DNA from: a virus
Direction: 5' to 3' (one strand)
Length of the DNA stretch: 47,257 nt
Virus genome (UHGV): UHGV-1363571
The translations under genes were made by a program, and so were the position numbers. The notes under the pieces are model-generated. The model was not told the DNA's origin. It did not search any database and saw only the letters and a list, made by a program, of their open reading frames with translations. Positions 4,535 to 44,578 of this stretch are shown piece after piece (the stretch's first letter is position 1; every line of letters starts with the position of its first letter).

Positions 4535-7468
4535 TTAGTTTTCCGTTATCCAAGTTGTTGTTAGCATCCTTTCTAGGTACGACTCATTCTCCACATCTAT
4601 AGCTATTGCGCCGTTTTCTTTTATTATGTACCTGCCTGTTCCGAATATTTGTCCGTTGGAAACCTCGCTGATTGGTGCCAACACTTCTATTGCCGGTCTG
4701 TATCCGTCAGGGATTCTTACCTCTTGTATTTCTTCAATTCTTCCTTTCCACGGGAACTGTGCTTTCATAATGATCGTGCACGTTACAACAAAAGCAGTTC
4801 TTATAAGCTTTATTCTGATGGAATTTGATGGATTTATTTCCGGGAATGGTCCCTGCTTTGTGCCAGAATCATATTTGCTGTACGAAGACAAACCAATTAA
4901 TGGGTTGTTTCCGTTTTGTGCATATATATCTCCGTCTGATAACACAAGCTTCGAACGTCCTCCGGTATTTTGGTTTATATATGCTAGACCTTGCATGGAA
5001 AAAGTCATATTTGCAGGATTGCCTCCCGAGTCCTTACCGGAAAATGCAAGGGAAGCGGAATTAAGTTCCATCGTGCTGTCGACAACTCCATTATCAATCA
5101 ATTTGCTTACGATTTTCCCTGCGTCAATATCTATGAGCATGATCCCGTTTTTGCTTTTTATCTTACCTGCTGTTAATTCGCCGGCATTCACTGCGATCGC
5201 ACTTAATGTTTGCACGTCCAGATTCTCGACCGATACGTAATGCAGCACCCAACGACTTCCATCCCATCTTTTAATTGGTTCTCCACTTGCTGTCTGCCAG
5301 AGCTGTCCTACTTTTGGATTTTCCGGGGGTGCGGGAGACACGATGATGCCGGATGTTCCGTCCTCTCCATTCTGGCCATGCACTCCGATGATGACAGGCG
5401 TTGTCTTGGTAGAGGTTCCATTTGTGTAAACGATTATCTCGTAGCTCCATAAGTATTTTTTTGCTTCCGTCATGGTCTGCATTGTCGTAGTCCATCCAGG
5501 CGTATTTACCGTAATCCCAGAGTTTTTTTCGCTTGCCAGATAATACTTTGTGACATTCTTAATCCCTACACCGTCTGCGCCGTCCTGTCCGTCTTCACCT
5601 TTAATCTTAGTCCAAGCATACTTTTTGTAGTCTGTGCTGTCTGCCTGTGTAAAATCGGTATACTGTCCGATGTACTGCTTATTTGTGCTATCTGATACCG
5701 AAAAATCTTTTGAACCATCTGCACTGTTGGAATAAGCAACGTGGAAATAAGGTGTTCGGCCGTCTGTTCCCGGCTTCCCGGGCACTCCGTCCGCTCCATC
5801 CGCTCCCTTAATCTTACTCCATGCGTACTTCGATGGATCTGTGCTATCCAATAGTTCAAAATCCACATACATTCCGATATATTCCCGGTTGCTGTCGGAC
5901 ACGGAAAAGTCCTTCGTTCCATCCGCACTGTTTGCGTAAGCGATATGGGTGTACTGCGTTCTTCCGTCTGTCCCTGGCTTTCCGGGAATCCCTTGTTCTC
6001 CAGGTGGCCCTTGTGGTCCCACAGGTCCCTGTTCTCCATCATCGACTTTAGTAATCGTAACCTCGTAATACCCGCGTTTTATCCCATTTTCCAAAGCCTC
6101 AAACGAGTACACCGCCTTTGTATCCACGTCCGTAGCATTTACCGTAACGCTCTTACCAACATAAAACTCGTGTCCATCCTTGCTCCATCGGAATTGTAGC
6201 TTGTCTGCCACATCCACGCCGTTATCGTAAGCGTAAGCTGTCAGAGTAGTGCTACCGATGCCATTTTTAAAGATAATGCCGTTGTTAGTGGAGATGGAAC
6301 AGGTGTAAACTTTATTTTTGGAAATCAAGTCCTCCATCCTCTTAATGAGATCGCCGGATATTTCGGACATCAGCTCTTTGTAGTTTGTAAATACCGTCTT
6401 TGCTGTTTTTGGATTGGTAAGACTGCGCACCTGTTCGGACACTCTCGCCTGTAGATAAAGCACTGGTGTCCACTCCTGATCCTGCATCCTCACGATGTCC
6501 CCGATGTTGGTATCGAAGTACCCGTCCACCTCGTAAGTCACTACTGGTTCGGATGCTGTTTTAAGATCAGACAGAGCCATGCTATAGAGCTTGTCCTTGC
6601 TGTCTGTATCGTACTCTTTCCGCAGCATGATATAAGCATCGTCCTTGTTTACGATGTTGGACGGGAATCGATCTCTTGCCTGCGGTGCCCGGATGAGTGC
6701 CACGTCTGTAAAGTACTCGATATTCCCATTCTCATCATACTCTTTTTTATCCAGTCCATTGATCGTCAGCCCGTCTTTCCCGGTCGGCTGGATACAGGTG
6801 TAAAGCTTCTCGGCATCTGTGGTTTTACGGATTCCGGTAATTCCTTTCCCGTACCGCAGTACAATGTCATTCCGGTATTCTCCGACTCCGCTGTCTGTAT
6901 CTGAGTGTTTCCGATATACATTTAGGACAATCTCTTTTAAAGAGTAGTCTCTGTTCAATACCGTCTCAAATTCGATCTCCGCAGAAAATACATTGGCCAG
7001 AGAGAATAATCTCTTTAATACAGACGTTGTGCCTGTCCACTCATTAGTGATCCGCTTATCTGATACCTCGTTAAGCCCTAATTTCAGCGTTCTCTCCGCA
7101 TCAAATACGGCAAGGTACTCTTCAAAGCTCATTGCTTTTCCAGCTTTGTATTCGCCGGCATCCTCGTTTATAAGCTCAAATGACAGAGACCATGCCGTAG
7201 CGGTAATTATCTTCTCCGTCTGATCGGTATTTACAATATTTAAGTAGTAAGATTTACCCTTGTATGTAAAGGCTACCTTGTTTCCGACTGTAACATGTTC
7301 TGCGTCTGGATGTTTTGCGTTTACCGTAAAAGTGTACGTATTTGCCGTACCTTGTAAGTATTCGTGCAGCTCGTCTCCCCAGTAGTGCATGGATTTTTTA
7401 TGTGCATTATCCATAAATGCTACTTGTGTGTTATTTGCGCTTAAAATCGCAATTCTAATGCTGCCCAT
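4535..7468 (-). CDS. Tail-associated endopeptidase / Tal (prophage tail family) with collagen-like Gly-X-Y segments
   Basis: 977 aa. Prophage_tail-like N-terminal domain. GEQGPVGPQGPPGEQGIPGKPGTDGRT and GADGADGVPGKPGTDGRT collagen-like repeats. Follows Dit. Confidence 0.65.
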   Translation of the reverse strand: MGSIRIAILSANNTQVAFMDNAHKKSMHYWGDELHEYLQGTANTYTFTVNAKHPDAEHVTVGNKVAFTYKGKSYYLNIVNTDQTEKIITATAWSLSFELINEDAGEYKAGKAMSFEEYLAVFDAERTLKLGLNEVSDKRITNEWTGTTSVLKRLFSLANVFSAEIEFETVLNRDYSLKEIVLNVYRKHSDTDSGVGEYRNDIVLRYGKGITGIRKTTDAEKLYTCIQPTGKDGLTINGLDKKEYDENGNIEYFTDVALIRAPQARDRFPSNIVNKDDAYIMLRKEYDTDSKDKLYSMALSDLKTASEPVVTYEVDGYFDTNIGDIVRMQDQEWTPVLYLQARVSEQVRSLTNPKTAKTVFTNYKELMSEISGDLIKRMEDLISKNKVYTCSISTNNGIIFKNGIGSTTLTAYAYDNGVDVADKLQFRWSKDGHEFYVGKSVTVNATDVDTKAVYSFEALENGIKRGYYEVTITKVDDGEQGPVGPQGPPGEQGIPGKPGTDGRTQYTHIAYANSADGTKDFSVSDSNREYIGMYVDFELLDSTDPSKYAWSKIKGADGADGVPGKPGTDGRTPYFHVAYSNSADGSKDFSVSDSTNKQYIGQYTDFTQADSTDYKKYAWTKIKGEDGQDGADGVGIKNVTKYYLASEKNSGITVNTPGWTTTMQTMTEAKKYLWSYEIIVYTNGTSTKTTPVIIGVHGQNGEDGTSGIIVSPAPPENPKVGQLWQTASGEPIKRWDGSRWVLHYVSVENLDVQTLSAIAVNAGELTAGKIKSKNGIMLIDIDAGKIVSKLIDNGVVDSTMELNSASLAFSGKDSGGNPANMTFSMQGLAYINQNTGGRSKLVLSDGDIYAQNGNNPLIGLSSYSKYDSGTKQGPFPEINPSNSIRIKLIRTAFVVTCTIIMKAQFPWKGRIEEIQEVRIPDGYRPAIEVLAPISEVSNGQIFGTGRYIIKENGAIAIDVENESYLERMLTTTWITEN

Positions 7469-8940
7469 TACAAGTATACCTCCCTTATTTTTGCTTTAAT
7501 CTGCGGCGGCGGAGATGAAAAGGAAGAATAACAGAACTGCACTTCTGTTGTTCCGGGTGGCACTTTAAAATAGTCCGTCCCCGTAATCTCATCTCCCTTA
7601 GCCACCATCCCATTAACGTAGACCTTAGTACTCTCCCCGTCTATAGACACCACGTCACCGGCACGATATCGGTTCGGCACATCCTGATACTTATCGACAT
7701 TGTCTTTCCGAAATCGGATGCTTTTTAAATAATTGTGCGTAACGTACTGGTTCGAAAGATTCCGATCTCCCCACTGTCCGATCCAGACCTGTATCTTCTC
7801 ACATTCCATGTCCTTGATCTCCGGTATATTTCGCTCCATGTAAGTCCCATACCAAAAAATCCGCAGCTTTTCTCCCTCTTTTAAAAAATCATTATGACCG
7901 CCACCCATCTTTAAATTAAACGGGTTTCCCTCATAAGCTGTCGGCTGGAATTCCTCTCGTCTGATTAAGGTGTTCCCTGGGGCAAACCACTCGATACGCG
8001 CCGTATTACCAACCGTATCACTCTTGTTAATAGACATGGCGCATATCACCTTGTTATCTCCAGTCAGGAATGCAATGGTCTGCGCTCCTGTCTGTCCCAT
8101 CAAGCCGGTTTCGAACCAGTGCTGCGTGTAACAGTAAAAGTTCTTTGCCCCACGTCTGCCCTCGCTGTCCACTGGGATAGTAAGTGTTCTCATTCCACCG
8201 TTCCAGTATCCGGATGTTGCTTGTCCACCTTTTAATGCCATCACGTTGTATCCGGCAACATTCCTTACTTCAAGCGTTCCCTGTGTGGTATTCTCTGGAT
8301 TTTGGCAAGACGTTCCATGATCGTCTTGAAACAGGTTGTATCCATCAAACAGGTTTTCAGACGCTTTGTAATTCTCTCCGTCTGCTTCTTCCTCTTTCCC
8401 TAGCTGGATCACTCCGTACTGGCTCACAAGTCCGATAAATCCGTTTTCATGATTGTGCGTGATCTTATAGTCCACGTCTGCCCATTCGGTACCGTTGTTT
8501 TGAATGGTAATGGTCTGGTAGCCGTTCTGTTGGACGCCAGTGAATTGTTTTTCTGCGGTAGAGTATGCTACTCCGTCCGGGATTAACCATGTAATTGTTC
8601 CCTCTCCCAGAAATTCTGTTTCTTCACTGAATTCTAAAGTACCACACGGAATCGCATAAAAGCATTTGTTCGGAACATTTCCAAACACTAACTTTTTTGG
8701 TTCATCTACTTTTAATGCTTTCTGTAAAGCATCGTAATTCTCTTCCAGATTACCCTCAATTGTAAACGGCATCACAATTTGTTTGTTCTCGTATGACGTG
8801 TAAGCAAAATCACTTCCATTCTGTTTTTCCGCCTTCACAAACGATGGATTCCAGTCAGCACCGACAAACGGTGTAAATCCCTGTAGTACTTTGATATACT
8901 TTCCTAATTCGATGTCATTGAACTTCACAGAAAGTGTCAT
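7468..8940 (-). CDS. Distal tail protein (Dit)
   Basis: 490 aa, immediately downstream of the tape measure and upstream of Tal. Start and stop overlap the neighbours. Confidence 0.55.
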   Translation of the reverse strand: MTLSVKFNDIELGKYIKVLQGFTPFVGADWNPSFVKAEKQNGSDFAYTSYENKQIVMPFTIEGNLEENYDALQKALKVDEPKKLVFGNVPNKCFYAIPCGTLEFSEETEFLGEGTITWLIPDGVAYSTAEKQFTGVQQNGYQTITIQNNGTEWADVDYKITHNHENGFIGLVSQYGVIQLGKEEEADGENYKASENLFDGYNLFQDDHGTSCQNPENTTQGTLEVRNVAGYNVMALKGGQATSGYWNGGMRTLTIPVDSEGRRGAKNFYCYTQHWFETGLMGQTGAQTIAFLTGDNKVICAMSINKSDTVGNTARIEWFAPGNTLIRREEFQPTAYEGNPFNLKMGGGHNDFLKEGEKLRIFWYGTYMERNIPEIKDMECEKIQVWIGQWGDRNLSNQYVTHNYLKSIRFRKDNVDKYQDVPNRYRAGDVVSIDGESTKVYVNGMVAKGDEITGTDYFKVPPGTTEVQFCYSSFSSPPPQIKAKIREVYL

Positions 8941-11900
8941 GTACGTTCTCCTTTCAGTAATTTCTTAAAATCTGTAATTCTTTGCTGTTCTGTCAGCATT
9001 GGAGCTGCTGTTTCTTTAATCAATTCTCTTCCATTCAGTGTTGTGCTTACTTCAATCGGACGTTTTGCCAGATCAGAAAGTCCTGCCACCGCACTCATGA
9101 TCGCCTGATTCTGTTGCTGAAGATTTCTGATTTCTGCGTTATCCATCTTGTACTGCATAACAGATGTTGCTGGACGATTCGCTACTCTGGATGCATTAAA
9201 AGCCATGACCTCTCGCATCCGTGCTGAAACAGCGGACAGATCGATAGATTCCAGTGCTGCGTTTGAAATATTTCGGGAAGATTTTACAACTGACTTTTCT
9301 TCATCCTTAATACCCAACGCCAGACCTTTACTGAAGAATTGACCAAATTCTCTGGTCTTTTTGGATGGGGAGCGCTCATCAAGTTCCCTTTTAGCTGCCG
9401 CCAGCGCAGAAGAAGCAACTGCGATAGCTGCGGAAATAGCTGCGGAACTTCCAGCGGAAATACCATTGGCAAGACCGTAGGAAAAGTTCAAGCCCTGATC
9501 GTACGCTTTGCTTCTTATTCCAACGCTACTTAAACCGGATACAGCTCCGTCTCCAAGACTTTTGGCAGATGACTCCGCATTTTTCTTGCCAGAATCAATC
9601 CCGCTCTTTAAACCATCACCAAGTTTCTTTCCTTCTTGTTTTCCTTTTTCGGAAAGCTTGACATTCGATAATGCTACTGCTGCATTTCCACCTAATGTAG
9701 ATGCGGCCGCATTTACTGATCCAGAACCACCAACAATTCCATTTGCAAGTGCGTTTGCAATCTGGCTTCCCATTGCCTGCGCTTGTCCCGAAACATTTGC
9801 AGATGAAAGCCCTGATAAAGCCGCATTTTCTAAGCCTGATGCAGCCGCCTGCACAACTGGGGCTTGACCACTCAAAGAGGATGACAGTCCAAAACCTACG
9901 TTGTTTCCAAATCCTGCCGTAGCTGACAACATATCCATGCCATTCAGTCCTTGTGGAATCTGACCACCTAAGGAAGCCGCTGCCATCAATACGGCATTGG
10001 AATTCGCATACAACGCATCAATCAGTGACTGTGTTGCTTCACTTCCTTTCCCTGAAGGAATTGTGGTCGTATCTGTACTGCTTGCACCTGTGTTGATTTC
10101 ATTTACAGCACTTTTTGTAGCCTCATTAATCGCAGTTTTCCCACTGTTTACAGAATTCGCAGTACTATCTGCCGCCTCTTTCCCTTTTTGAGCAGGAACT
10201 GTAGAAGTATCTGCCTCTGCTGCCCCTTCGCTGACGCCACCTTCGATCGTATCTTTCGCCGCTTGCTTCACTGGTTCTTTTCCCTCTTGTAAAGCGTTTG
10301 TTGCAGCTTCTGTGGTTTCTTTCGCTTCTTGGGCTGCTGCTTCTGGGTTTCCTGAACTTCCAAGCAATTGGTTTATTTCGTTCTGCCATTGCTCAATCAA
10401 CGCAGTGTTGTTCGCAGTCCCCTTTTCATACTCGATTTGAGCCATAATCCACATGGCTTGAGCCTGAGCTACCATTTCATTTGTTACGCCAGATCCTTTT
10501 TCTGATGCTGCGGCTTTCATCTCATCATAACTTTTTCGAAAGCTATCAACCTGTTTTTGTAATGTAGATTCACTTGCATCTCCTGCTCGTTGTAAATCAT
10601 TCGACAATGCAAGAACCGCTGCTGCTGCATTTGCGCTTCCAGCCTCCACTGTCCCCATCGCAGTTTCATAATTAGAGATAGTTGTAGAGTATTCATTAGA
10701 AGCTGTCTTTGCATCATTAAACGCTTTCTTAGCTTTATCCAATTCCGTGTTTGCTTCCATCTGAGCCTGTTGGAGACGCATAATCTCAAAAGAGCCTGCT
10801 GCTTGTTCAGCAGTCATAGAAGATTCAGCTTCTTTTAACTCGTCAGTTACCTTCTTGGCTCTCTTTTTAGCTGCGGAATAATCATCAAAAGTGCGCGCAA
10901 CTTCTTGTGCTGCTTGTGCTTGATTTTTGATTGCAGCTGTGTAATCATCTTCATATGCGGATAGCAGTACCTCTGCTTTTTTCTTTTGAATAACTTGATC
11001 TATGGATTGTCTTAACTCACCATACTTCTGTATTACTCCATCTGTAGTTTCAATTTCTATACCAAGTGCCTCAGATAATGTAGAAGTAATAAAGGCTGCA
11101 CGTTCCTCATATCCTTCCTTTATCTTCCCATTTTGATCAACAATTCCCTGTAACTCATCCCATAGTTGCTGATAATGACCGAATTGCGTCTGGATTCCGG
11201 CAACTTCATCTTGTCTTGCAGCCTGAGTTTCTCGGATTGCTTCTGCCTGTTCTGCCAGTTTTTTATTGGCTTTATCTGTAGCAGACTCCGCTTCTTTCTG
11301 CGTCAAAGCATAAACACCAAGACCTGCTGCCAGAGCTGCTACCGCAGAAATCACAAGACCAATCGGATTCGCTTTCATAGCAACGTTCCAAAGAGTTTGT
11401 GCTTTTGTGGCTAAATTCACCTTTCCTGTAAACATGCCAACAACTGCTTGCCCCGCTGTAAGTGTAGCGTTTGTTGCAACACCACTTTCCATAGCCAGAA
11501 GCTGTGCAGCATAGTAAGCATCCACTGCTGCAGAAGCGGTCTTCCATGTTTTCACACCTTTTTTCAATATAGATGTTGTTTCATTGACAACTTTATATCC
11601 CTTAAAAGCGGTAAAAGCTGCCGTTGCTGATGCTGCGATCAAGTCCAGATTCTCTCCTGCAAAGTCCAGTGCCTTTGTCAGTGGCGGGAGCGCTTTATCA
11701 GCCAGATTTCCAACAGCATCTACTACATTACTTAAAGTATCAACCGCTGTTTCTCCAGCTTCTCTCAAGCCACCGTCACTCAATGACTCTGCCACTGCAT
11801 CAATCGCATCCTCAACCGGCTCTTGCAGTTTGGATGGTAACAGCTCTGCCAAACCGGATGCCATAGATTCCGCCATCTCTCCGGCCGCACCGAGAATTCT

Positions 11901-13154
11901 TCCTTTGTTCGAAGCAATTCCAGAAGCAAATGCTTCTATAAAATCAACTGCTGTGTCTACCATTTCTGGGGCATGGGATGCTGCTTCTACTGCAAGATTT
12001 GCAAATTCATCACCTGCTGTCTGGATTGCTTCATTCAGACCACCGTTGTTGAAAGAATCTGTAATATTGTTGATGCTTTCTGTTGCCGTATTTGCTGCAT
12101 TTTTCAGATTGTCTGCTACGCTGTTGTAAAACGCCAGACCCAATGTTTCTGCTGATCCACTAAGCTGCTCCAACGCACCGGATAGATTGTCCTGCATTGT
12201 TTCCGCTGCCTCTTGGGCTGCGCCATCACAGTTTTTATAGGCATTTGTCAGTTCTCCTAGAGAACCTTCTCCCTCGTTAATCAATGCAAGCATACCGGAC
12301 AATGCTTCTTGTCCATACAGGGTGACCAGATAATTATTTTTCTGCTCATCCGTCATTCCCTCTGTTGCCTGTCTGAGCATTCCAACCTGTTCCGTCAGGG
12401 ATTTCATTTTCCCGTTGGAATCGTAGAAGGAAATTCCAAGTTCATCCATAGCTGCAGTCATGTCATCTGTTGGCTTTGAAAGCCTTGATAACGCACCTCT
12501 TAAAGAAGTACCAGCCTGGCTACCCTGTATTCCGGCATTTGCCATGATTCCGATTGCCGCCGCTGTCTCTTCCAAACTAAGACCTGCTGCCCTCGCAAGA
12601 GGTGCTACGTACTTCATTGCCTCTCCGGTATCTGCTACAGAGGAATTTGTACGATTCGCATTCGCCGCCAGAACATCGGCAACATGCGCTGCATCGGATG
12701 CCGCCAGTCCAAATCCTCTCAAGGTTGATGCCGCAATATCCGAACTGCTCGCCAGATCTTCACCGGATGCTGCTGCCAGATTCAAAAGTCCCGGCATTGC
12801 ACTCATAATCTCGGATGTAGTAAAACCAGCTGCTGCCAGATTCTCCATTCCCTCCGCTGCCTGACTGGCAGAAAATGAGGTATCAGCACCTAACTGCATT
12901 GCCTGTTCTTTTAATTGCTCAAATTCTTCTCCTGTTGCTCCGGAGATAGCCTTAACTCTAGACATCTGAGATTCAAAATCAGAACCCACCTTGATTGCCG
13001 CTGCTGCAACTCCACCAAGTGCTGCTGCAGTTCCCGTGATCGCTACCGTTGCCGCTTTCATCCCTTTTGCTGTTATACTCCCAAGCTTTGAAAGTCCTTT
13101 TTCTATCCCGGAAGAATCCAGATCTGTTTCAATTACAACTTTTCCATCTGCCAT
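8937..13154 (-). CDS. Tail tape measure protein
   Basis: 1405 aa, Ala/Gly/Ser-rich helical protein with a TMP core-like region. RBS GAGGTGGTGAG upstream. Confidence 0.8.
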   Translation of the reverse strand: MADGKVVIETDLDSSGIEKGLSKLGSITAKGMKAATVAITGTAAALGGVAAAAIKVGSDFESQMSRVKAISGATGEEFEQLKEQAMQLGADTSFSASQAAEGMENLAAAGFTTSEIMSAMPGLLNLAAASGEDLASSSDIAASTLRGFGLAASDAAHVADVLAANANRTNSSVADTGEAMKYVAPLARAAGLSLEETAAAIGIMANAGIQGSQAGTSLRGALSRLSKPTDDMTAAMDELGISFYDSNGKMKSLTEQVGMLRQATEGMTDEQKNNYLVTLYGQEALSGMLALINEGEGSLGELTNAYKNCDGAAQEAAETMQDNLSGALEQLSGSAETLGLAFYNSVADNLKNAANTATESINNITDSFNNGGLNEAIQTAGDEFANLAVEAASHAPEMVDTAVDFIEAFASGIASNKGRILGAAGEMAESMASGLAELLPSKLQEPVEDAIDAVAESLSDGGLREAGETAVDTLSNVVDAVGNLADKALPPLTKALDFAGENLDLIAASATAAFTAFKGYKVVNETTSILKKGVKTWKTASAAVDAYYAAQLLAMESGVATNATLTAGQAVVGMFTGKVNLATKAQTLWNVAMKANPIGLVISAVAALAAGLGVYALTQKEAESATDKANKKLAEQAEAIRETQAARQDEVAGIQTQFGHYQQLWDELQGIVDQNGKIKEGYEERAAFITSTLSEALGIEIETTDGVIQKYGELRQSIDQVIQKKKAEVLLSAYEDDYTAAIKNQAQAAQEVARTFDDYSAAKKRAKKVTDELKEAESSMTAEQAAGSFEIMRLQQAQMEANTELDKAKKAFNDAKTASNEYSTTISNYETAMGTVEAGSANAAAAVLALSNDLQRAGDASESTLQKQVDSFRKSYDEMKAAASEKGSGVTNEMVAQAQAMWIMAQIEYEKGTANNTALIEQWQNEINQLLGSSGNPEAAAQEAKETTEAATNALQEGKEPVKQAAKDTIEGGVSEGAAEADTSTVPAQKGKEAADSTANSVNSGKTAINEATKSAVNEINTGASSTDTTTIPSGKGSEATQSLIDALYANSNAVLMAAASLGGQIPQGLNGMDMLSATAGFGNNVGFGLSSSLSGQAPVVQAAASGLENAALSGLSSANVSGQAQAMGSQIANALANGIVGGSGSVNAAASTLGGNAAVALSNVKLSEKGKQEGKKLGDGLKSGIDSGKKNAESSAKSLGDGAVSGLSSVGIRSKAYDQGLNFSYGLANGISAGSSAAISAAIAVASSALAAAKRELDERSPSKKTREFGQFFSKGLALGIKDEEKSVVKSSRNISNAALESIDLSAVSARMREVMAFNASRVANRPATSVMQYKMDNAEIRNLQQQNQAIMSAVAGLSDLAKRPIEVSTTLNGRELIKETAAPMLTEQQRITDFKKLLKGERT

Positions 13155-13182
13155 TTACTCACCACCTCGTGTTAAAAATTTG

Positions 13183-13216
13183 TATAAAAAGAGCACCTAC
13201 CATTTCTGATAGATGC
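13183..13216 (-). terminator. Intrinsic terminator, copy 1 of a related family (stem GCATCTA/TAGGTGC plus TCTTTTTATAC)
   Basis: On the minus strand: GCATCTA-tcagaaatgg-TAGGTGC-TCTTTTTATAC. Nearly identical to the element at 23729-23762. Confidence 0.55.
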
Positions 13217-13801: not shown

Positions 13802-14617
13802 TTACGCCACCTCCTGATATACAACTTTGCATTTATTTGTATTACCATTTGATAACCGATGCTCAATGAGTGTGGGATACCCATTTTCCTCCAGCCATTC
13901 TTTTACCTTCTGGAAAACAGAATCTTTATATTGAACAGTAACGCCGTCATGTCCATTCCTGCTATAAGCTGTCTTTACAATTTCGTCCTCTGAAACATCC
14001 AACTTCTGAATGATAGCACTTACTGCCTTATCGTGTGGTCTGCCACTTTCCGATAAAATACCAAACTCTTTCGCCATCGTGGTGCAATCCCACAAGACCG
14101 GAACTTCTGAAATCAGCGGCACTTTCACTGGATACCCGTTGTCTGAATAAATACGGATAATTTCAGCAGCTATGTACTTAGAGTCTACTCCTGCATCATT
14201 GAGAGCACCTTTGATGTTCTTCACCATCTGGTTGACGGATGGGAGTTTTTCTTTGTGGGTAGGTTTCTTCTTTGGCATTTCATAAGAGCCCGTCTTTCTG
14301 ATAGACGGAATAACATCCATCGCAAGCCAGTTTTGAAATTTCTCAGCTACTGGGTTGCTTGCCTTCATTCCAAGACGATAAAACAGTGATTCTGGAATGT
14401 AATCATCTTTCCCCACTTGTGGGGAAAATCCCATTTCTCTACAAAATGAGTTTAGCCTTTCCCATTTCACATAGATTTTCCCATTCTTCTCTTGCGTCCA
14501 TCCAAATCCAATCGCAGTATCTTCCGCACTAATGGAAATACTTCCATCTGGATTCGGCAACGTTCTTACTTGTAATTCCAATTCCTTATTATTAAATACT
14601 TGTACTTTATTTTCCAT
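13802..14617 (-). CDS. Bro-N domain protein (antirepressor-like) with unknown C-terminal domain
   Basis: N-terminus VQVFNNKELELQVRTLPNPDGSISISAEDTAIGFGW matches the Bro-N/KilA-N pattern. Confidence 0.55.
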   Translation of the reverse strand: MENKVQVFNNKELELQVRTLPNPDGSISISAEDTAIGFGWTQEKNGKIYVKWERLNSFCREMGFSPQVGKDDYIPESLFYRLGMKASNPVAEKFQNWLAMDVIPSIRKTGSYEMPKKKPTHKEKLPSVNQMVKNIKGALNDAGVDSKYIAAEIIRIYSDNGYPVKVPLISEVPVLWDCTTMAKEFGILSESGRPHDKAVSAIIQKLDVSEDEIVKTAYSRNGHDGVTVQYKDSVFQKVKEWLEENGYPTLIEHRLSNGNTNKCKVVYQEVA

Positions 14618-15614: not shown

Positions 15615-15847
15615 TTTCTTCTCCTTTCCGGTTACACATTTATTTAATTATCGGTTACACATTTAATATATCAATCACACAACAAGATGTCAAGAAGTTT
15701 TTCAAATTTTTCCGCCCTACCTGTGGAATTAAAATAAGACACAGCATTTCGCCATGTCTTTCTGTGCTTTCCGGGGAGATCAGGAGCATACCCTGAAAGG
15801 ACTCCTCCCCGATATTCAATTAACTTCATTTATATTCTCCTTAAAAT

Positions 15848-15885
15848 TGGGTATAAGAAAACCACCTACCGAAGTAAGCGGTTTC
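15848..15885 (-). terminator. Intrinsic terminator, copy 3 of the GGTAGGTG family
   Basis: Minus strand: AACCGC-ttacttcggtag-GTGGTT-TTCTTATAC. Confidence 0.45.
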
Positions 15886-15889
15886 TATC

Positions 15890-17308
15890 TTACTGCACAA
15901 CGATCTGTGATCTGCTCAATTTTAAATACTGTCCATCTTGTACTGTCAAATACACTTCTCCATCGAAGTTGTCATTTGAAATTATAGTTCCTAAATCTCC
16001 TGTTGAGTTGGCTGTAACCTCATAATATCCACCATTCGTAGCAGATACTTTATACTCTCCTGCCGGAATATCCTTTCCTACAAGATACATTCCATCTGGA
16101 TATGTACCATTAACCGGAGTGAATGCAGCCGCCTCACTGACGGGAACTGCCGTTCCATCAAACTGGAAATACTGTCCATCTTGAACTGTAACATAGGCTC
16201 TATTCCTATAATTGTCATTGCTGATGATTGATTCCAAACTTCCGCTGGAATCGGCTGTCACTGCATAATAGCCGCCAGAAGATGTGATAAGATATTCTCC
16301 CGCTGGCATGTCTGTACCTATTTTGTACATTCCGGTTTGATATCCTGTCTGAATAGCTGATGGATTTTCCAACTCTTCTGTTAAATCTTCATAATCACTT
16401 TTTGCTTTGCTTCGGATCTCTCCATTCAAGATATCTGCAAATTCTTGTATTTCCTCTTCTGAATATTTGTCATTCAAACGAAGTACAACATTTTCAGATA
16501 CAATCCGGTATGCGAAACTATCAAGAGAAAGAGCGTCCAATGATTCTAAATAATAAACTCTTGCCACGGCAGCATCACTACTATCGAAAATTTCTATTGT
16601 TCCGCTTAATGGTTCTTCTTTTGAGTATTCCTCTTCTATTCTTGAATCAGCAAAATTTCCTTTTTCTATATATTCGTGATTTGAATCATTCGGATCGGTT
16701 TCATCCGTATAAATAATATCATATTCTATCGGTATTCCTGCATCCTTCAATTCTTCTAATATACTCTTTACGTTAACAATTTGCGCTGATTGCAAAATTA
16801 GTTCCATGTCACGTTCGTAGTTTTTTTCGCTTTTTTCATCAATTCCAAATATGAAATCGCCAAGTTCTAATGTAAATACATGTCCAACATAATGGCGCTC
16901 ATTTTCATAAAAAGAAATATCCGCAACTTTAGCTTTTATATCACCATAACTTTCATCATATATGCGCTTTATCGCAAACGGATAGAGTGAACCAGTTATT
17001 TCTGTTATATGACTCTTGTATGCATCATCATCCAATTTATCTATATCATTTTTGTTATATAATACTTTTAAATAGACATCGTCCGACTTAAAACATCGAA
17101 CCTGTTCCTCTTCCCCAAAACTTTCTATTGTAGACTCATTCCAATTTGATGGAACTTGAAACTTCATATCTTTAATTTGTACAGAAATATTTGAAGATTC
17201 ATCAAAATCAACGCTCTCCACCTCACCGGCATCCTTCTTCTCCCCGCATCCTGTCAGCACCCCCACACAAAGCACTGCTGCCAGCAAGACACTTAGTACT
17301 CTCTTCAT
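15890..17308 (-). CDS. Lipoprotein with a tandemly duplicated C-terminal domain
   Basis: Signal peptide with lipobox LTGC. Two roughly 75-aa repeats (G.Y..G.D.PAGEY...GYY.VTA.S.G.L..IISNDN....Y.TVQDGQY). Lower GC than the neighbouring tail genes. Confidence 0.6.
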   Translation of the reverse strand: MKRVLSVLLAAVLCVGVLTGCGEKKDAGEVESVDFDESSNISVQIKDMKFQVPSNWNESTIESFGEEEQVRCFKSDDVYLKVLYNKNDIDKLDDDAYKSHITEITGSLYPFAIKRIYDESYGDIKAKVADISFYENERHYVGHVFTLELGDFIFGIDEKSEKNYERDMELILQSAQIVNVKSILEELKDAGIPIEYDIIYTDETDPNDSNHEYIEKGNFADSRIEEEYSKEEPLSGTIEIFDSSDAAVARVYYLESLDALSLDSFAYRIVSENVVLRLNDKYSEEEIQEFADILNGEIRSKAKSDYEDLTEELENPSAIQTGYQTGMYKIGTDMPAGEYLITSSGGYYAVTADSSGSLESIISNDNYRNRAYVTVQDGQYFQFDGTAVPVSEAAAFTPVNGTYPDGMYLVGKDIPAGEYKVSATNGGYYEVTANSTGDLGTIISNDNFDGEVYLTVQDGQYLKLSRSQIVVQ

Positions 17309-17394
17309 AACCTTCCTCCTACCCTATACGCTTTACCACATACTCATTATACCGTGAGGATTGTGGAATCGCAAGGATGGAATGGAGCGAGAAA

Positions 17395-17680
17395 TCGCCC
17401 GGCTCAATTTTGAGCTCGGCTAATTCTTTCCACACAACTGTGGAAAGCGCATTCTTGCTCCGTCATGTGATGACGAATTTCGTCGGTACAAATATACGGT
17501 TCGTCATAAAAGACGATCCGAATCCCAAATAGACAAGTTCTATTTTCTTCGCCCACTTGTGGGCGAAACAGGAGAGTCCAAGATTGGACGCACCAACTTC
17601 AATTACAGGGGGTCTCAGTCTGTGACCACCATTTTAACGGATGCTCAGTTTGAACCCCCGCTCAATTTGAGAGGGGGAGT
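17395..17680. ncRNA. Hairpin-dense noncoding element of unknown class
   Basis: Seven or more short perfect stem-loops within about 300 bp. Two carry a GCTCAATTT(T)GAG palindrome (17397-17422 and 17656-17680). Confidence 0.3.
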
Positions 17681-18369
17681 TACGCTGCAATCTGCATTGT
17701 ATTATTTTTCTGTATAAACTCCTTGATTTGATCGTATCCCCATCCACAGTCTACAAGTCCACTTACCAGGCATTCCATTGACTGAATTGCTTTTAAATCT
17801 TCTGCCGAAAGATAGTCTCTCAAATTGTCCTTCTTTCCAATTCCAAGATTCTCACGAAGTTGCTTTGCATTTACTCCGAACAATACTTTATAAATACAGT
17901 TGGTGTAAGTAGAGTAAGCATGTCCGTGCATCCGCTCATTCTCTGTGGACTGTTGCAGTGCTTTTGTAAGTGATTGCCTGACAGCAATTCCTTTTTCTCG
18001 TTCAACAAGTTTGCCTTGTAGGATTTTTTCCATAGCATTGAATTGCTTGATGTAGGCAAGTTTGAACTTCATAGCTTTCGCCCCCGTGTAACCCATTGCC
18101 AAAAGAGTAAAGCCGTCTCTTGTCATAAGATACATGGGATTCATTTTTCCATTGGATGCCTTGTAAGAATCCAAATAAAATAGAGCGGAAAATTCCGCTG
18201 TACTTATAGTAGACTCTATATTCCTTATAGACTCCATTACATCTCGATGATTCTTGTCAAATGTATCTGATACATCCAAACTTGATACAACTGTCATTTC
18301 CATTTTATTCACTCTTTTTACTTCTACTAACATATTTTCAATCCTTTCGCTGAATCTCGTCAGTGTCAA
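17680..18369 (-). CDS. Rha family phage regulatory protein with a KilA-C/ORF6C-like C-terminal domain
   Basis: KNHRDVMESIRNIE...MTRDGFTLLAMGYTGAKAMKFKLAYIKQFNAMEK matches the Phage_pRha pattern. Unusual position inside the tail module. Confidence 0.65.
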   Translation of the reverse strand: MTLTRFSERIENMLVEVKRVNKMEMTVVSSLDVSDTFDKNHRDVMESIRNIESTISTAEFSALFYLDSYKASNGKMNPMYLMTRDGFTLLAMGYTGAKAMKFKLAYIKQFNAMEKILQGKLVEREKGIAVRQSLTKALQQSTENERMHGHAYSTYTNCIYKVLFGVNAKQLRENLGIGKKDNLRDYLSAEDLKAIQSMECLVSGLVDCGWGYDQIKEFIQKNNTMQIAA

Positions 18370-18438
18370 TTTGACACTATCTGTTTTTTAAGTATTAAAA
18401 TAAGGTGCAGCACTTCGCCACACCTTTACACACACTCT

Positions 18439-19065
18439 CTACGTTCGTACGTTTTTCGTACGAAGCAATTCACTCACATCACCGCCGTTGAGAAGCGCAT
18501 CTTCAATCTGCCTTGTCCGGTCATCCATAGCCGGTGCCTGATCAAGACCGTAATACTTCTGCATTGCCCGGTAAAACTCTCTTTCCTCTTTTGAGAGGTT
18601 CTTATTCGACACGTCCATTGTACGGTACTCAATAACCTTTGACAGCCTTGTATCTTCTCCCAGATTCTCTAGAAGCAGCATAAACTTCCACCAGTGCATC
18701 TCTTCTGCCTGCAAGTCAATTCCGTACTGCTGGATGAAACCGGCATAGATCAGTCCTGCATCCTCTTGAAAGTCAAACGGTTGCTTATCATTGACCCCTG
18801 CGATCTTCCGCGGGAATTTCTTCTTTGACTGCTCCTTGCCACAGGAAAAGAACCAAAACATCTGATCCACGTGTTCTTCTGTGAAATAATCACAATCTCT
18901 GTAGAACAGCAGCAACACTTTCAGCAAGGAATCTCCCGTCAATTCTTCTGCACTTTCTATGATTTCATTGCATTTTAAAACAGTGCGGAAATCCCATTTT
19001 ACAGGACACTCCACACCATTCACGATCAAAAACTCTGGAAATTTTTCTATTAAGAGATTCATCAT
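18439..19065 (-). CDS. Tail assembly chaperone-like protein (second, gpT-position)
   Basis: Position after the major tail protein. 4-nt overlap with the upstream gene. Confidence 0.35.
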   Translation of the reverse strand: MMNLLIEKFPEFLIVNGVECPVKWDFRTVLKCNEIIESAEELTGDSLLKVLLLFYRDCDYFTEEHVDQMFWFFSCGKEQSKKKFPRKIAGVNDKQPFDFQEDAGLIYAGFIQQYGIDLQAEEMHWWKFMLLLENLGEDTRLSKVIEYRTMDVSNKNLSKEEREFYRAMQKYYGLDQAPAMDDRTRQIEDALLNGGDVSELLRTKNVRT

Positions 19066-19491: not shown

Positions 19492-20019
19492 TTATACTCC
19501 CCCCACCGTAAATTTCTTTGTAGATGTATCAAACTGTCCATCTTCCCAATCCGATACACCAAGTAAATTTCCAGATCCCTGAATCTCACCATCGTTGTCC
19601 GGGAAATCTGACACCTCGATGGCTACTTTTCTTCTCTTTGCATAAAACTTATTCTCCTGTTCTTCCACAGGCTTTTCCATGAACACCTTCACATAATAAG
19701 TTTCTGCATCTGACCCGGTCTTTTCATTTTCTCCGATATCCGCAATAAATTCGATCGCTTTTTCGGAGCGGATCAGGTCGAACTCCAATGGTGCCGTCCA
19801 TTCATAAGAGCCGATTCTCTGTGTTGCTGATTTCTGATTAACATATCTTTTGGAAGATGTCTGTGCAGATGGAGAATCGTCCAACTGAGTCACTCCAAAT
19901 CCAAGAAGCTCATAAGTTTCACTCAGATCTTTTGAAACATCCAGATATCCCGGATGCTGCCATCTACCTACAACACCAGTCTCGCCTGCTGCTGCAAAAA
20001 ACTGAATATTCATTTTCAT
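19492..20019 (-). CDS. Major tail protein
   Basis: Start refined to MKMNIQFFAAAGETG with RBS GGAGGT. Sits between the tail-completion gene and the chaperones. Confidence 0.55.
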   Translation of the reverse strand: MKMNIQFFAAAGETGVVGRWQHPGYLDVSKDLSETYELLGFGVTQLDDSPSAQTSSKRYVNQKSATQRIGSYEWTAPLEFDLIRSEKAIEFIADIGENEKTGSDAETYYVKVFMEKPVEEQENKFYAKRRKVAIEVSDFPDNDGEIQGSGNLLGVSDWEDGQFDTSTKKFTVGGV

Positions 20020-20799: not shown

Positions 20800-21212
20800 T
20801 AAGAACCACCACCTATCCTGATATGCTTAGAAGAACCAAAAAAGTTCTCGGAATGACTAAGTACTTTCCCAATCGTTCCAGAGAACCTTTTCATGATATC
20901 TTCTATCCCTGTGACATTTTCTCCATCCCATTCTCCAAGGATAAAGAAATCACCATTCCGCACAGTCCATTTTCCATACACTTCTGTTAACCGGTTGAAC
21001 TCATCCGGTGAAATCCAGTCAGCACATTCTGAATATGGAATCCGGATCTGGTATTCATCTGCGCTTCTTAATCCATTTTCTCCTACGGTGCTTTTCTGGT
21101 TCGTGTGAAACCAGACCTTATGGATGACATGAGGAATAAACACCATCTTCCTGTTCTCCTGATCTGGCCACTGATTAAAAATCGTAATCTTAGCATTCGT
21201 AAGCATTGACAT
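20799..21212 (-). CDS. Head closure / head-tail adaptor protein
   Basis: Position only. Confidence 0.35.
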   Translation of the reverse strand: MSMLTNAKITIFNQWPDQENRKMVFIPHVIHKVWFHTNQKSTVGENGLRSADEYQIRIPYSECADWISPDEFNRLTEVYGKWTVRNGDFFILGEWDGENVTGIEDIMKRFSGTIGKVLSHSENFFGSSKHIRIGGGS

Positions 21213-29595: not shown

Positions 29596-29703
29596 TTAGG
29601 ACTACTGCACAATGAAAAGAATTATAACAGCAACAAAATCAAATAACCAAATACACAATCGAAAATTATATAAGCAAAAAAGGAACCTTGCAGTAGTCCA
29701 CAA

Positions 29704-29776
29704 CGGGTATAACAGGACTCGAACCTGCGACACGTCGGTTAAAAGCCGATCACTCTCCCAACTGAGCTATACACCC
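29704..29776 (-). tRNA. tRNA-Lys (anticodon UUU)
   Basis: Cloverleaf folded manually. Acceptor GGGTGTA/TATACCC, D-arm GCTC-AGTTGGGA-GAGT, anticodon loop CTTTTAA, T-arm GCAGG-TTCGAGT-CCTGT. No encoded CCA. Confidence 0.7.
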
Positions 29777-29966
29777 GTAGGATGCCAGTTGACATCCTTT
29801 ACCCTATCCGCACTCGGGTACTGACACTAAATATAGATTGCTGAATCTATTTTTGTTTGTTTTGCAGATCTGCGGATATCTGCGTTTTGGTACCATTGCA
29901 ATGTAAGTCCGGTGTGCACTCCCAGAACAGATCTCAGCTGTGCAGCCTGTATACTCACATCACAAA

Positions 29967-37779: not shown

Positions 37780-38577
37780 CTACACTTCTCCTATCAAATT
37801 ATCTGGCCAGATCGGTGATTTTAATATTTTGGTATGCTTGCACCAGTCGCAAACTTCGCATCGTATCGGGTCAATCTCTCCGTTTTTCAGAGAGAGAATC
37901 TTTGATACATTCATCTCCATTCCAGACAGACAATCATTCATCCATTCCTGCGGGATCTGGATAATCTCAATATCCGGCTCTTTTTCTTTGCTGGCTGCAG
38001 CAATGTAAAACGGCAACCGCTCACCTGTATTGATTCTCACTACCTCCTGATATACGGCAGCCTGTATGTCATAGCCCCAAAACCTCACAAAGTCCATCAG
38101 TCCCATGTCTTTCGCATAATGCGCTTCTCTCAGGGATTTCATTACTTTCAAATCAACGATGCATTTACCGGGCAAATAGCTGTCAAGCTTCACTTTCCAT
38201 TTCGCTCCAAATAAATCAGCTGTAAAAATTTTCTGCTTCTTTCCACTCATAAACATCATGAATAAAGGGTCTCTTTCGATTCTATTTATGATCTCTTCTG
38301 CTTTTCGGTACTCTGCCTTTAACTCTCCTTTTTTTGTAAATATCTCAGGATTCTGAGCCTTAAACAAATCAAGTGTCCCCTCGAAATGAGAATCCACATA
38401 AGAGCCAACCAGAAGTGCTGTTGTTTTCTCCATCTCCCAGTAACCATTCAGCTTTGCAAGTGCCTGTTCCTCACACCCAACACGTCCGATTGTTCCGCAG
38501 AAATCCTTATACTGCGAGACACTGAGATACTCCTGATTTGCTTCTTTGCTGTAATAATTTTCCTGTGTTAAAATCAT
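37780..38577 (-). CDS. PD-(D/E)XK family exonuclease (YqaJ/RecE-like), recombination partner of RecT
   Basis: D...D.K core (IVDLKVM). C-terminal Cys cluster. Immediately downstream of RecT. Confidence 0.5.
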   Translation of the reverse strand: MILTQENYYSKEANQEYLSVSQYKDFCGTIGRVGCEEQALAKLNGYWEMEKTTALLVGSYVDSHFEGTLDLFKAQNPEIFTKKGELKAEYRKAEEIINRIERDPLFMMFMSGKKQKIFTADLFGAKWKVKLDSYLPGKCIVDLKVMKSLREAHYAKDMGLMDFVRFWGYDIQAAVYQEVVRINTGERLPFYIAAASKEKEPDIEIIQIPQEWMNDCLSGMEMNVSKILSLKNGEIDPIRCEVCDWCKHTKILKSPIWPDNLIGEV

Positions 38578-39209
38578 TCAAATACCTCCTCTGCTTCTTG
38601 CACCGCTGCCTCGAAATCAAACGGGTTTTCTGCTACTCTTGTATCACTTTTTGATATGTCCTCTGCTTCACCCTCGACATAAACCCCCATAAGAGAATTT
38701 GGGGTATATACCCGAGCAAAGAACGCAGCCGCACGATATGCAAGCATCTGCTCCGGCATGGTTTTCCATTTACTTCCTGTTTTTTCATACCATCCCTCTT
38801 TTTTAGCCATTTCGATCGTCACTGTAGTTCCTTTGATTTTCTCTCCACTATCTTTATATTCTGCTTCAATTCTGCATCCCCAATTATCTGTATGAGGTGT
38901 TCCATCGTACACCGGACGGACGTTTTTAAATTCTGTATTCGCCCGGATCATACTCATACAAGCCTGTCCACTCCATGTAGGCTTACCTTTTACAACATAC
39001 AGATTCTGCATGACCATCATAGGAGATACGCCCATTCGATTCGCCATATCTACTGCAATGGTGCAATCCATTGGCTTGCCCTGGTAATTCTGCGGTACCA
39101 GCTGCGATGTAGCAAACATTTTTCCGATATCAAAAATCTTTTGAAAACTCTGACTGTCCGCAAACGGACTTAATTCGTGTCTTTCTTCTTTTACAATCAT
39201 TTCTTCCAT
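38574..39209 (-). CDS. recT: RecT-family single-strand annealing protein
   Basis: W.KTMPEQMLAYRAAAFFARVYTP resembles the RecT W..H.EEMAKKTAIRRLFKYLP region. Confidence 0.55.
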   Translation of the reverse strand: MEEMIVKEERHELSPFADSQSFQKIFDIGKMFATSQLVPQNYQGKPMDCTIAVDMANRMGVSPMMVMQNLYVVKGKPTWSGQACMSMIRANTEFKNVRPVYDGTPHTDNWGCRIEAEYKDSGEKIKGTTVTIEMAKKEGWYEKTGSKWKTMPEQMLAYRAAAFFARVYTPNSLMGVYVEGEAEDISKSDTRVAENPFDFEAAVQEAEEVFE

Positions 39210-44077: not shown

Positions 44078-44179
44078 ATTATATATCTCGTAAACAATAT
44101 TGTCAATACATTTTTTGTTGTTTTTGTGATATTTTGTTGCTTATGAGATATTGACAACAGAATTGTTCCCATGTATAAT
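44078..44179. promoter_or_regulatory. Genetic switch: two divergent perfect consensus promoters (TTGACA-17-TATAAT on each strand) with inverted TATTGACAA half-sites
   Basis: Leftward -35 at 44106..44101 and -10 at 44083..44078. Rightward -35 at 44151-44156 and -10 at 44174-44179. Confidence 0.65.
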
Positions 44180-44203
44180 AAGGGAAAAGAAAGAGGTGAA
44201 TAT

Positions 44204-44578
44204 ATGAAGGAACGTCTTAAGAAACTGCGTAAAAGTTTAGATATGACGCAACAGGCATTTGCTGATAAAATAGGAATGAAGCAAAATACAATTGCTCAAT
44301 ATGAAATGGGAAGAACTACTCCGAGTGATGCTATTGTCTTTTCTATATGTAGAGAGTTTGGAGTGAACGAAAATTGGCTTCGCACTGGAGACGGCGAAAT
44401 GTTCTTGCAAACTACTCCATGTGAGAAGGCTTACAACAGATTTGGTTACATAATGGAGAACTCTTCTCCATCAAAAAAAGCAGCTCTTTCCGTATTATTA
44501 GAACTGCTTTACAGTGTTCCGGATGATCAATGGGATATGATCATGGAACAATATGATGAAATTAAAAAGGAAAGCTAA
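44204..44578 (+). CDS. XRE-family HTH repressor (CI-like, no peptidase domain)
   Basis: Start refined to MKERLKKLRKSLDMTQQAFADKIG with RBS AGAGGTG. HTH_XRE. Confidence 0.6.
   Translation: MKERLKKLRKSLDMTQQAFADKIGMKQNTIAQYEMGRTTPSDAIVFSICREFGVNENWLRTGDGEMFLQTTPCEKAYNRFGYIMENSSPSKKAALSVLLELLYSVPDDQWDMIMEQYDEIKKES

Follow-up and report, generated by a model that had tools for sequence, protein, structure and literature searches.

A non-coding stretch of unusual appearance lies between the Rha gene and the lipoprotein gene of the virus genome UHGV-1363571, which was analyzed here as a single stretch of DNA of 47,257 nucleotides (nt), referred to below as the window. This element (positions 17309 to 17680) is packed with short hairpins, and the question is what it is and why it is so rich in structure. 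The original prediction, made from the sequence alone, had offered three options: a structured RNA, a protein-binding array, or a mobile remnant. The last of these came closest, as the element was found to be a mosaic of exchangeable modules with breakpoints at hairpins. In our judgment it is probably, with considerable room for doubt, a composite junction spacer in a moron-cassette hot spot of a Lachnospiraceae prophage, located between the tail-chaperone and tape-measure genes.

The element is modular

The density of hairpins is indeed far above background. The element contains eight perfect hairpins with stems of at least 5 bp (17402 to 17415, 17426 to 17447, 17461 to 17475, 17472 to 17484, 17501 to 17516, 17527 to 17545, 17548 to 17567, and 17576 to 17589 in the perfect-stem scan), compared to 1.98 in dinucleotide shuffles (P = 0.003), and six with stems of at least 6 bp, compared to 0.43 expected from shuffles (P < 0.001). 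These counts were matched by only 2 to 4 of 505 other 372-nt windows. The minimum free energy of the whole element was −137.9 kcal/mol for the minus strand (z = −6.2) and −137.2 kcal/mol for the plus strand (z = −7.6), so that it folds better than shuffled sequences on both strands, and its G+C content exceeds that of the flanking genes. When 200-nt windows were scanned, the element ranked 5th to 6th of 471 by z-score and held the two lowest absolute energies among the best 20 listed. Other 200-nt windows overfold to the same extent on the minus strand (z −5 to −6.5; 44409 to 44708, 9 to 208, 19509 to 19708, and 20809 to 21008), and the region at 44409 to 44708 is located directly 3′ of the helix-turn-helix (HTH) repressor gene (44171 to 44578), overlapping its end.

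At −11 to −15 kcal/mol, CGG-UCGUC...GACGA-CCG and four hairpins that are described below (hairpin 1, H_a, H_b, and the promoter-proximal hairpin) are the strong ones of the element. The first and the last of the previously listed palindromes, said to share a core about 260 bp apart, do so at a distance of 258 bp, with the cores CCC(G/C)GCTCAATTT. Of the listed stems, ggtctcagtctgtgacc has an internal mismatch and folds no better than shuffles (z = −0.31), and the first and last stems carry a bulge or mismatch. Not all of them can form separate structures, since cgtcatgtgatgacg and gacgaatttcgtc have one arm in common and are mutually exclusive.

Comparison with related loci, which are labeled with L-numbers (L001, L107, L111, etc.), showed that the element is modular. 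The prophage is common, since exact matches to its Rha protein are listed in 306 index blocks of a public assembly collection, from which 24 contigs were read and 9 places displayed. Among the relatives, the DNA 3′ of Rha occurs in at least six arrangements. The ORF map and the relatives divide the element, whose sense strand is the minus strand, into three modules. The Rha-proximal module A (17549 to 17680) follows Rha in every relative with this Rha, and the promoter-proximal module C (17309 to about 17466), which carries TTGCGA-17-TATAAT and GGAGGA, precedes every lipoprotein allele. Between them lies module B (17466 to 17545, minus strand), an orphan non-coding filler that contains four small hairpins, of which two exclude each other, and that was found only adjoining H_a. 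Module B is identical or differs by one loop base in L002 to L004, L006, L106, and L112, shows 92 to 93% identity in L105, L108, and L111, and is missing from the PBECR2-type, L107-type, and L094-type relatives.

The arrangements themselves differ by whole segments. L106 is identical to the window, and L112, L002, L004, and L006 have about 50 nt extra. In L105 and L108 the stretch between module B and H_b is replaced and further hairpins are added, with a net gain of about 66 nt. Between modules A and C, L104, L109, L110, L001, and L005 contain a cassette made up of a PBECR2 nuclease gene with two skipping-rope RNAs (59 and 55 bits) and a terminator. In L111, which retains module B, this cassette includes a third skipping-rope RNA and is flanked on both sides by a copy of H_a. 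In L092 to L095 another Bro-N gene replaces Rha and module A, and module C is kept; L107 has module A only, with no middle or promoter part. The skipping-rope RNAs of L111 (59, 55, and 35 bits) are located at 4268 to 4351, 4379 to 4458, and 4655 to 4751 of that locus, and this RNA also occurs in L104, L109, L110, and L001. Skipping-rope RNA is Rfam family RF02924 (Weinberg et al. 2017, PMC5737381), for which the paper reports an association with a nearby protein. The PBECR2 nuclease and the skipping-rope RNAs possibly represent an arrangement of a toxin with an RNA partner.

The cargo behind module C is highly variable as well. The lipoprotein alleles comprise 121, 188, 270, 368, or 472 amino acids, and the signal peptide starts with MKRVLSVLLAAVLCVG in all alleles with displayed sequence, position 17 being M or V. 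Some of these alleles (window 15890 to 17308; L001, L005, L094, and L105 to L112) have a common C-terminal repeat domain, phrog_23726.

Pieces of genes have been left behind in the region. A 27-nt segment of module A (17634 to 17660, plus strand) is coding elsewhere, in a second subfamily of Bro-N genes (peptide LTGAQFEPPL) and at an equivalent protein position, and is antisense and non-coding here; it shows 96% identity over 27 to 30 nt to the Bro-N genes of L081, L086, L089, and L090 and of the Faecalimonas/Lachnospiraceae loci L097, L101, and L102. In L086, a long inverted duplication at 10760 to 10810, TTAACGGGTGCTCAATTTGAAC-GAGG-GTTCAAACTGAGCACCCGTTAA, cuts the Bro-N gene short at the site corresponding to that of the H hairpin, which from its sequence appears to be a signature of hairpin-mediated rearrangement. 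L094 holds a 55-nt intergenic relic of a Rha segment (4366 to 4421, 84% identical), and the phages of the L093/L094 type and duplicates with this relic have a Bro-N gene instead of Rha. Because of the Bro-N relic, the L086 junction, and the Rha piece of L094, repeated breakage and joining must be assumed in the history of the region.

Neither the element nor its modules occur outside this locus of a single phage lineage. Profiles of the element searched with nhmmer gave no further homologues in 91 loci (80 Rha relatives and 11 pattern loci) or elsewhere in the window, a pattern scan of genome contigs revealed no copies of module B, and a second such scan returned only the 27-nt Bro-N segment (Faecalimonas, Lachnospiraceae) and apparent chance matches.

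A hairpin family conserved as structure

The hairpins at the module borders belong to a family, termed H, that was defined in this analysis by a covariance model (R1) built from 24 distinct copies. Its members have a stem of 9 to 10 bp, apical CC(A/C)(A/C)...(G/U)(G/U)GG, a U-rich 5′ base and an A-rich 3′ base, and are scored by R1; the consensus is UUUC(N)CCCAC-AAGU-GGG(N)GAAA. R1 detected exactly three copies in the window, all on the minus strand: H_a at 17544 to 17571 (UUUCGCCCAC-AA-GUGGGCGAA, 9 bp, −13.2 kcal/mol, 40.4 bits), H_b at 17423 to 17450 (CUUUCCACA-GUUG-UGUGGAAAG, 9 bp, −12.8 kcal/mol, 30.3 bits), and H_d at 14404 to 14431 (38.2 bits), which lies within the Bro-N antirepressor gene (13802 to 14617) at codons 64 to 70 (FSPQVGK). 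Apart from these copies, the best match reached 12.4 bits; read in antisense, the three copies scored 25.9, 22.4, and 15.3 bits. H_a lies 121 nt from H_b, to which it is only about 74% similar. In a search of 93 related loci with R1, copies were found only in this phage lineage.

The alignment of the 24 copies showed that the H hairpin is under selection as a nucleic-acid structure, with covariation and a strand bias. In a paired-cell test, 95.4% of the cells were paired, compared to 84.8% in 500 shuffles, none of which reached the observed value, and at most 62.5% with slid partners as a control. The covariation score was 0.401, compared to 0.206 in the shuffles, again reached by none of the 500. 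Four pairs, in 24 cells, were altered on both sides, and among the inner nine pairs of the sense strand 11 G-U cells and no A-C cells were present. H_a of L003 differs from the window by five substitutions, all of which keep pairing, as G-U on the minus strand, and H_b orthologues show the double changes A-U to C-G and C-G to A-U. The comparison among related prophages that the original prediction had proposed as a check thus revealed several hairpins that are kept by compensatory or G-U changes.

The same hairpins are sites at which genomes of this lineage are cut and rejoined, with cassettes gained, lost, and swapped, as the following junctions showed. L107 aligns to positions 18334 to 17548 of the window (99.7% identity) and to positions 14427 to 11587 (92%), and the 21-nt overlap of the two alignments is the hairpin. 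Compared with the window, 3.1 kb is absent, H_a being joined to H_d; the resulting hairpin is a hybrid with its 5′ arm from H_a and a 3′ arm of the Bro-N type (the partner in H_d), directly followed by the Bro-N codons from residue 64 on. In L111, a cassette of 1145 nt is inserted at H_a relative to L108, and the alignments overlap there by 14 nt. The identity at the junctions amounts to 12 to 20 nt.

The H hairpin also turned up at one fixed position in the Bro-N/Ant genes of many Firmicutes phages. Bro-N homologues were collected by protein similarity alone, from IMG/VR and from named phages. All 11 distinct Bro-N variants from IMG/VR have the hairpin at the same codons, as do 10 of 11 named phages (phiETA2, 187, LL-H, Ldl1, 63301, LLC-1, NF5, D-1873, LIBA6276, and pCD1602_4), Lactococcus phage 50902 being the one without it. 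The hosts of the named phages are Staphylococcus, Lactococcus, Lactobacillus, Leuconostoc/Lactococcus, Brochothrix, Clostridium, and Clostridioides. The coding hairpin has a stem of 7 to 10 bp at one codon position of the Bro-N/KilAC antirepressor genes (loci L320 to L330 and L116 to L199). The peptides encoded there vary (SPQVGK, AHKWAK, SQLVGK, DHLWSK, SQEVGK, and ATSGKK), the core CCCACAAGTGGG is translated in two frames, and residue changes are matched between the arms: TCC...GGG in Staphylococcus encodes S...G, and TCG...GCG in Brochothrix encodes S...A. The hairpin is kept in intact antirepressor genes across 42 to 90% protein identity. It is more stable than synonymous recodings, with P values of 0.000 to 0.065, and of 0.002 to 0.17 for the ten named-phage carriers; a model built from the lineage only scores the named-phage copies at 15.8 to 33.8 bits. 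In a metagenome scan, both free flanking positions were complementary in 55 of 121 core matches, compared to 7.6 expected, and 26 were located inside Bro-N homologues. The same hairpin alleles are encountered both within coding sequence and between genes. The searchable literature yielded no account of such a hairpin in antirepressor genes.

Other parts of the element and its surroundings

Directly after the Rha stop codon, module A starts with hairpin 1 (17655 to 17677, minus strand; CCCCC-U-CUCAA-A-UUGAG-C-GGGGG, −14.6 kcal/mol), which is homologous to the left arm of the long palindromic junction in L086. It is followed by the imperfect hairpin GGUCACAGACUGAGACC (17611 to 17627, minus strand), which has an internal A.A mismatch, replaced by U.U in L003, and is no more stable than shuffles (z = −0.31). 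The terminator scan listed a weak terminator-like site with a 5-bp stem at 17566 to 17589 (minus strand), consisting of the hairpin GUCCAAUCUUGGAC (z = −4.2) followed by UCUCCUGUUU and kept in L003 with one U.G change; judged by its sequence, it could end the Rha transcript. As a whole, the element was rejected as an intrinsic terminator, which requires a G+C-rich stem with a U tract, only this weak site being listed. No U tract follows H_a, H_b, hairpin 1, or the promoter-proximal hairpin, whereas the true terminators nearby, at 18402 to 18426 and 15736 to 15760, have one.

The promoter-proximal hairpin (17397 to 17420, minus strand; core CAAAAUUG, −13.4 kcal/mol) changes from GAGCUCAAAAUUGAGC in the window to AAAGCAAAAUUGCUUU in L108 and L111, with three pairs altered on both sides, and keeps its pairing in L004 via a U.G pair. 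U.G or G.U variants of the GUCCG...CGGAC hairpin of the region also occur among relatives. Downstream of these hairpins lie two signals of the lipoprotein gene that the original prediction had overlooked. One is a sigma-70-type promoter (17346 to 17374, minus strand; TTGCGA, 17 nt, TATAAT), which agrees with the consensus at 10 of 12 positions; its hexamers are invariant in 10 of 10 aligned relatives, and few spacer positions vary. The other, read from the sequence, is the ribosome-binding site GGAGGA (17314 to 17319, minus strand), 5 nt before the ATG of the lipoprotein gene, which is intact in nine of the 10 aligned relatives, the tenth (L104) having one substitution (GTAGGA). A leader peptide (MRFPQLCGKN behind GGAG) was dropped as a candidate, the frame being lost in L108 and L004.

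Several other identities were tried for the element. In a search of the whole window with Rfam 15 at gathering threshold, the tRNA-Lys was the sole match, and at E ≤ 10 the region from 17100 to 17900 gave four chance-level matches far under threshold; the CRISPR (clustered regularly interspaced short palindromic repeats) models returned nothing within the element. The covariance-model scan suggested earlier therefore returned no ribozyme family, hammerhead included, at E ≤ 10. A retron, already considered improbable in the original prediction, was rejected because the Pfam and PHROGs screens of the proteins revealed no reverse transcriptase domain. The element contains no tandem repeat as in a type III toxin-antitoxin RNA or a CRISPR or solitary-repeat array, and it is not known to resemble CRISPR repeats or Cas12a/Cas13 handles. 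A miniature inverted-repeat transposable element or an element derived from the insertion sequences IS200/IS605 was dismissed, there being no terminal inverted repeats and no transposase among the screened proteins. The hairpins are likewise no integron attC sites, as they are perfect and only 20 to 22 nt long, and the sole recombinase found is the prophage integrase. Similarity to Bro-N/Ant proteins within the element is limited to short patches of 23 amino acids at 48% (plus strand) and 9 amino acids (minus strand), so that it holds fragments of such a gene but none that is recognizable as a whole. The four small ORFs of the element gave no Pfam match and one chance-level PHROG match (E = 0.22), and neither BLAST with the element DNA nor tblastn with a stitched plus-strand translation found anything in 50,697 phage records.

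The source genome is a temperate siphovirus-type prophage with an integrase (45979 to 47223), an HTH repressor, RecT (38574 to 39209) and an exonuclease (37780 to 38577), a replisome organizer, head and tail genes, and tRNA-Lys. Its large ORFs are on the minus strand, except at the integrase/repressor end, and genes were annotated by Pfam and PHROGs screens of the proteins. The phage-borne tRNA-Lys (UUU anticodon) is located at 29703 to 29777 on the minus strand. Because the 27-nt Bro-N segment is present in genomes labeled Faecalimonas sp., uncultured Clostridium sp., and uncultured Lachnospiraceae, the sequence points to a Lachnospiraceae-type gut bacterium as host.

The element belongs to an island of accessory genes between a Gp15-like tail gene (18439 to 19065) and the tape-measure gene (8937 to 13154), the latter named after the Pfam annotation of a homologue. 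The island comprises the Rha gene (17680 to 18369, minus strand; 217 amino acids, Pfam Phage_pRha, 3.9e-28), the lipoprotein gene (15890 to 17308, minus strand; ATG at 17308 to 17306, signal peptide ending in LTGCG), the Bro-N antirepressor gene, and genes for proteins of 62, 223, and 168 amino acids, the 62-amino-acid protein matching the phage transcriptional-repressor family phrog_876. It is module C together with the lipoprotein gene, not the whole element, that has the makeup of a moron, with its promoter at 17374 to 17346, a U-tract hairpin after the lipoprotein stop codon at about 15841 to 15880, and the Gp15-like and tape-measure genes as flanks.

Further signals were noticed in the island. 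A perfect 17-bp palindrome, AGTGTCAAATTGACACT, at 18362 to 18378 overlaps a TTGACA hexamer just 5′ of the Rha start and looks like an operator. A terminator-like hairpin, AGCGGAAUUUUCCGCU, with a U tract lies within the Rha coding sequence (18184 to 18199, minus strand), in the segment to which the Rha relic of L094 corresponds. Two direct 20-nt repeats containing AAATGTGTAACCG (15642 to 15681), probably binding sites, are located between a TTGACA-17-TATATT promoter and the gene of the 62-amino-acid regulator. The near-identical U-tract terminator hairpins at 18402 to 18426 and 15736 to 15760 (minus strand; AAGGUGUGGCGAAGUGCUGCACCUU-AUUUUAAU and AAGACAUGGCGAAAUGCUGUGUCUU-AUUUUAAU) differ in three compensatory pairs and precede the Rha gene and the 62-amino-acid regulator gene, respectively. 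The same terminator motif is present upstream of the Bro-N genes in L081, L086, and L090 and looks like a portable terminator at the start of cassettes. Similar terminator sequences (80% over 30 nt) were also found at 13172 to 13201, before the tape-measure gene, and at 15841 to 15870, after the lipoprotein gene.

Interpretation of the locus

The composite junction spacer that we favor would consist of three components: the downstream flank of Rha, including the relic of a Bro-N gene; two conserved copies of the H hairpin with orphan filler between them; and a promoter, ribosome-binding site, and signal-peptide start that would drive variable lipoprotein cargo. The H hairpins would form on the gene-sense strand, most likely as part of the transcript, and may act as cis elements for antirepressor genes or their messages. 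The intergenic copies could serve as 3′ structures with an insulating or stabilizing role, set between the Rha transcript and the promoter of the moron. Given the sequence identity of their palindromic cores (12 to 20 nt), short-homology recombination, possibly by the RecT/exonuclease pair of the phage, would use them as crossover points.

A number of observations weigh against this interpretation or narrow it. The 24 copies of the H alignment are related and were hand-picked from the fetched loci, so that the shuffle control overstates significance. The G-U asymmetry would also fit single-stranded DNA of the sense strand, and at the level of sequence RNA and single-stranded DNA are both compatible with the data. 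Part of the apparent compensation between intergenic orthologues could stem from recombinational swapping of whole hairpin alleles, the 22-nt core of H_b in L108 (TTTCCCAACTTGTTGGGAAAGA) being identical to the Bro-N hairpin of L186, and template-switch "correction" of quasi-palindromes could generate compensation without selection. Beyond the H family and the promoter-proximal hairpin, comparison among relatives lends the hairpins little or no support: hairpin 1 is degraded in L003 and L111, and where module B is found it hardly varies. No H hairpin was present downstream of 73 more distant Rha relatives, and the hairpin is therefore not a general companion of Rha. The L107 junction arose between related phages and not by deletion from this exact genome, as its right flank is only 92% identical. 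Finally, we infer the transcript, its ends, any role at the RNA level, and the biochemical action of the hairpins.

The region might instead be a neutral scrapyard of recombination, made up of decayed antirepressor fragments and cassette scars, in which hairpins persist by inheritance, allele swapping, and template-switch correction and only the promoter has a function. This we consider rather unlikely. The antisense Bro-N fragment in module A, the intergenic Rha fragment in L094, the inverted-duplication junction of L086 at the same Bro-N segment, the decay of hairpin 1, and the alleles common to coding and intergenic contexts would all be expected of it; however, intact antirepressor genes keep the hairpin over a wide range of protein identity, in two frames and against synonymous expectation, the bias of 11 G-U to 0 A-C cells is predicted neither by neutral decay nor by template switching, and all five H_a substitutions in L003 preserve the structure. 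A single structured non-coding RNA, acting as a unit in the manner of a small RNA (sRNA) or a cis-regulatory leader, is still less probable. It would account for the very low folding energy on both strands, the elevated G+C content, and the several hairpins whose pairing compensatory or G-U changes maintain on one strand, but the helices are simple and independent, without conserved junctions or unpaired motifs, there is no Rfam match at E ≤ 10, the modules separate in relatives with module B being dispensable, the only good promoter points outward into the lipoprotein gene with none predicted for such an RNA, and the interior has no strong intrinsic terminator, only the weak site at 17566 to 17589. 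The proposal of a structured RNA thus holds for individual hairpins, which show compensatory and G-U changes on the sense strand, and fails for one multi-helix RNA, given the lack of an Rfam match, the independence of the modules, and the loss or replacement of module B.

We are similarly skeptical of an array of double-stranded DNA operators through which a dimeric regulator, such as Rha, the Bro-N protein, or the 62-amino-acid ribbon-helix-helix-like protein, controls the lipoprotein promoter. DNA-binding regulators are encoded nearby, and the hairpins are two-fold symmetric with conserved central bases (CCCAC-AA-GTGGG; CAAAATTG) 20 to 200 bp upstream of the promoter. Yet the three H copies of one genome differ in their arms, each still being self-complementary, the G-T positions break DNA symmetry with a strand bias, the same hairpin with differing arms lies mid-gene in phages of many genera, and no H copy is present in the lysogeny switch region. 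The protein-binding array of the original prediction was accordingly not borne out, as the stems covary, only apical bases are fixed, and wobble pairs are strand-specific. Least probable of all, in our estimate, are structure-specific recombination sites, i.e., folded single strands read by a dedicated enzyme as in integron attC sites or IS200/IS605 elements, which would make the region a true cassette array. The hairpins do bound cassettes, with a copy on each side of the L111 insert, crossovers fall inside the hairpin, and structure is conserved above sequence with a strand-specific bias. Against this stand the lack of an integron integrase or a Y1/HUH transposase among the proteins screened, the distance of 28 kb to the prophage integrase as the only recombinase found, and hairpins of 20 to 22 nt without extrahelical bases, unlike attC; junction identity of 12 to 20 nt also suffices for short-homology annealing by RecT/exonuclease.

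The locus shares traits with several known systems. Morons and the boundary sequences of mosaic modules are concepts from lambdoid and HK97-type phages. As in morons, a self-contained unit of promoter, gene, and terminator is placed between two late genes, and relatives differ by whole modules with short conserved joints; unlike in classical boundary sequences, a specific covarying hairpin forms the joints here and recurs inside antirepressor genes. To our knowledge, classical boundary sequences have not been described as structure-conserved hairpins. Integron attC sites are likewise imperfect palindromes that bound cassettes, one site per cassette, strand-specific and with structure prevailing over sequence, but they measure 57 to 141 nt instead of 20 to 22 nt, have extrahelical bases and R/L box pairs, and depend on an IntI-type integrase, none of which applies here, and several cassettes of this locus have their own promoters. 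Repetitive extragenic palindromic (REP) elements and the extended start-associated sequences of Cluster K mycobacteriophages are intergenic repeats that form hairpins on the transcribed strand and for which functions in the stability or expression of mRNA have been proposed. The H hairpins resemble them as short hairpin-forming repeats recurring between genes on that strand, and differ in having three copies per genome in one region, with coding copies at a fixed codon position of one protein family. In sister phages, skipping-rope RNA fills this same slot, with H_a on one side and the lipoprotein promoter on the other and the PBECR2 gene next to it, but it is absent from the window and is a multi-helix RNA followed by a terminator, in contrast to the simple hairpins found here.

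A bolder interpretation, which we put forward tentatively and believe to be improbable, is that the antirepressor genes of Firmicutes phages possess in the H hairpin a dedicated cis-acting element that has not been described before, either an RNA operator or a structure-specific recombination signal. The intergenic stretch would then be a small array of free-standing copies organizing an integron-like exchange of cargo cassettes, namely, the nuclease with its skipping-rope RNA and the lipoproteins, in the late operon. With the composite junction spacer as the preferred interpretation, the element clearly illustrates how a widespread gut prophage exchanges its accessory cargo at short, defined hairpins, and is not a new ribozyme or sRNA. 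The hairpin at one codon position of antirepressor genes in phages of Staphylococcus, Lactococcus, Lactobacillus, Clostridioides, Brochothrix, and Lachnospiraceae may carry more weight than the junction itself. It is directly testable in well-studied phages, such as phiETA2 or 187, and points to an unrecognized nucleic-acid signal in genes that control prophage induction.

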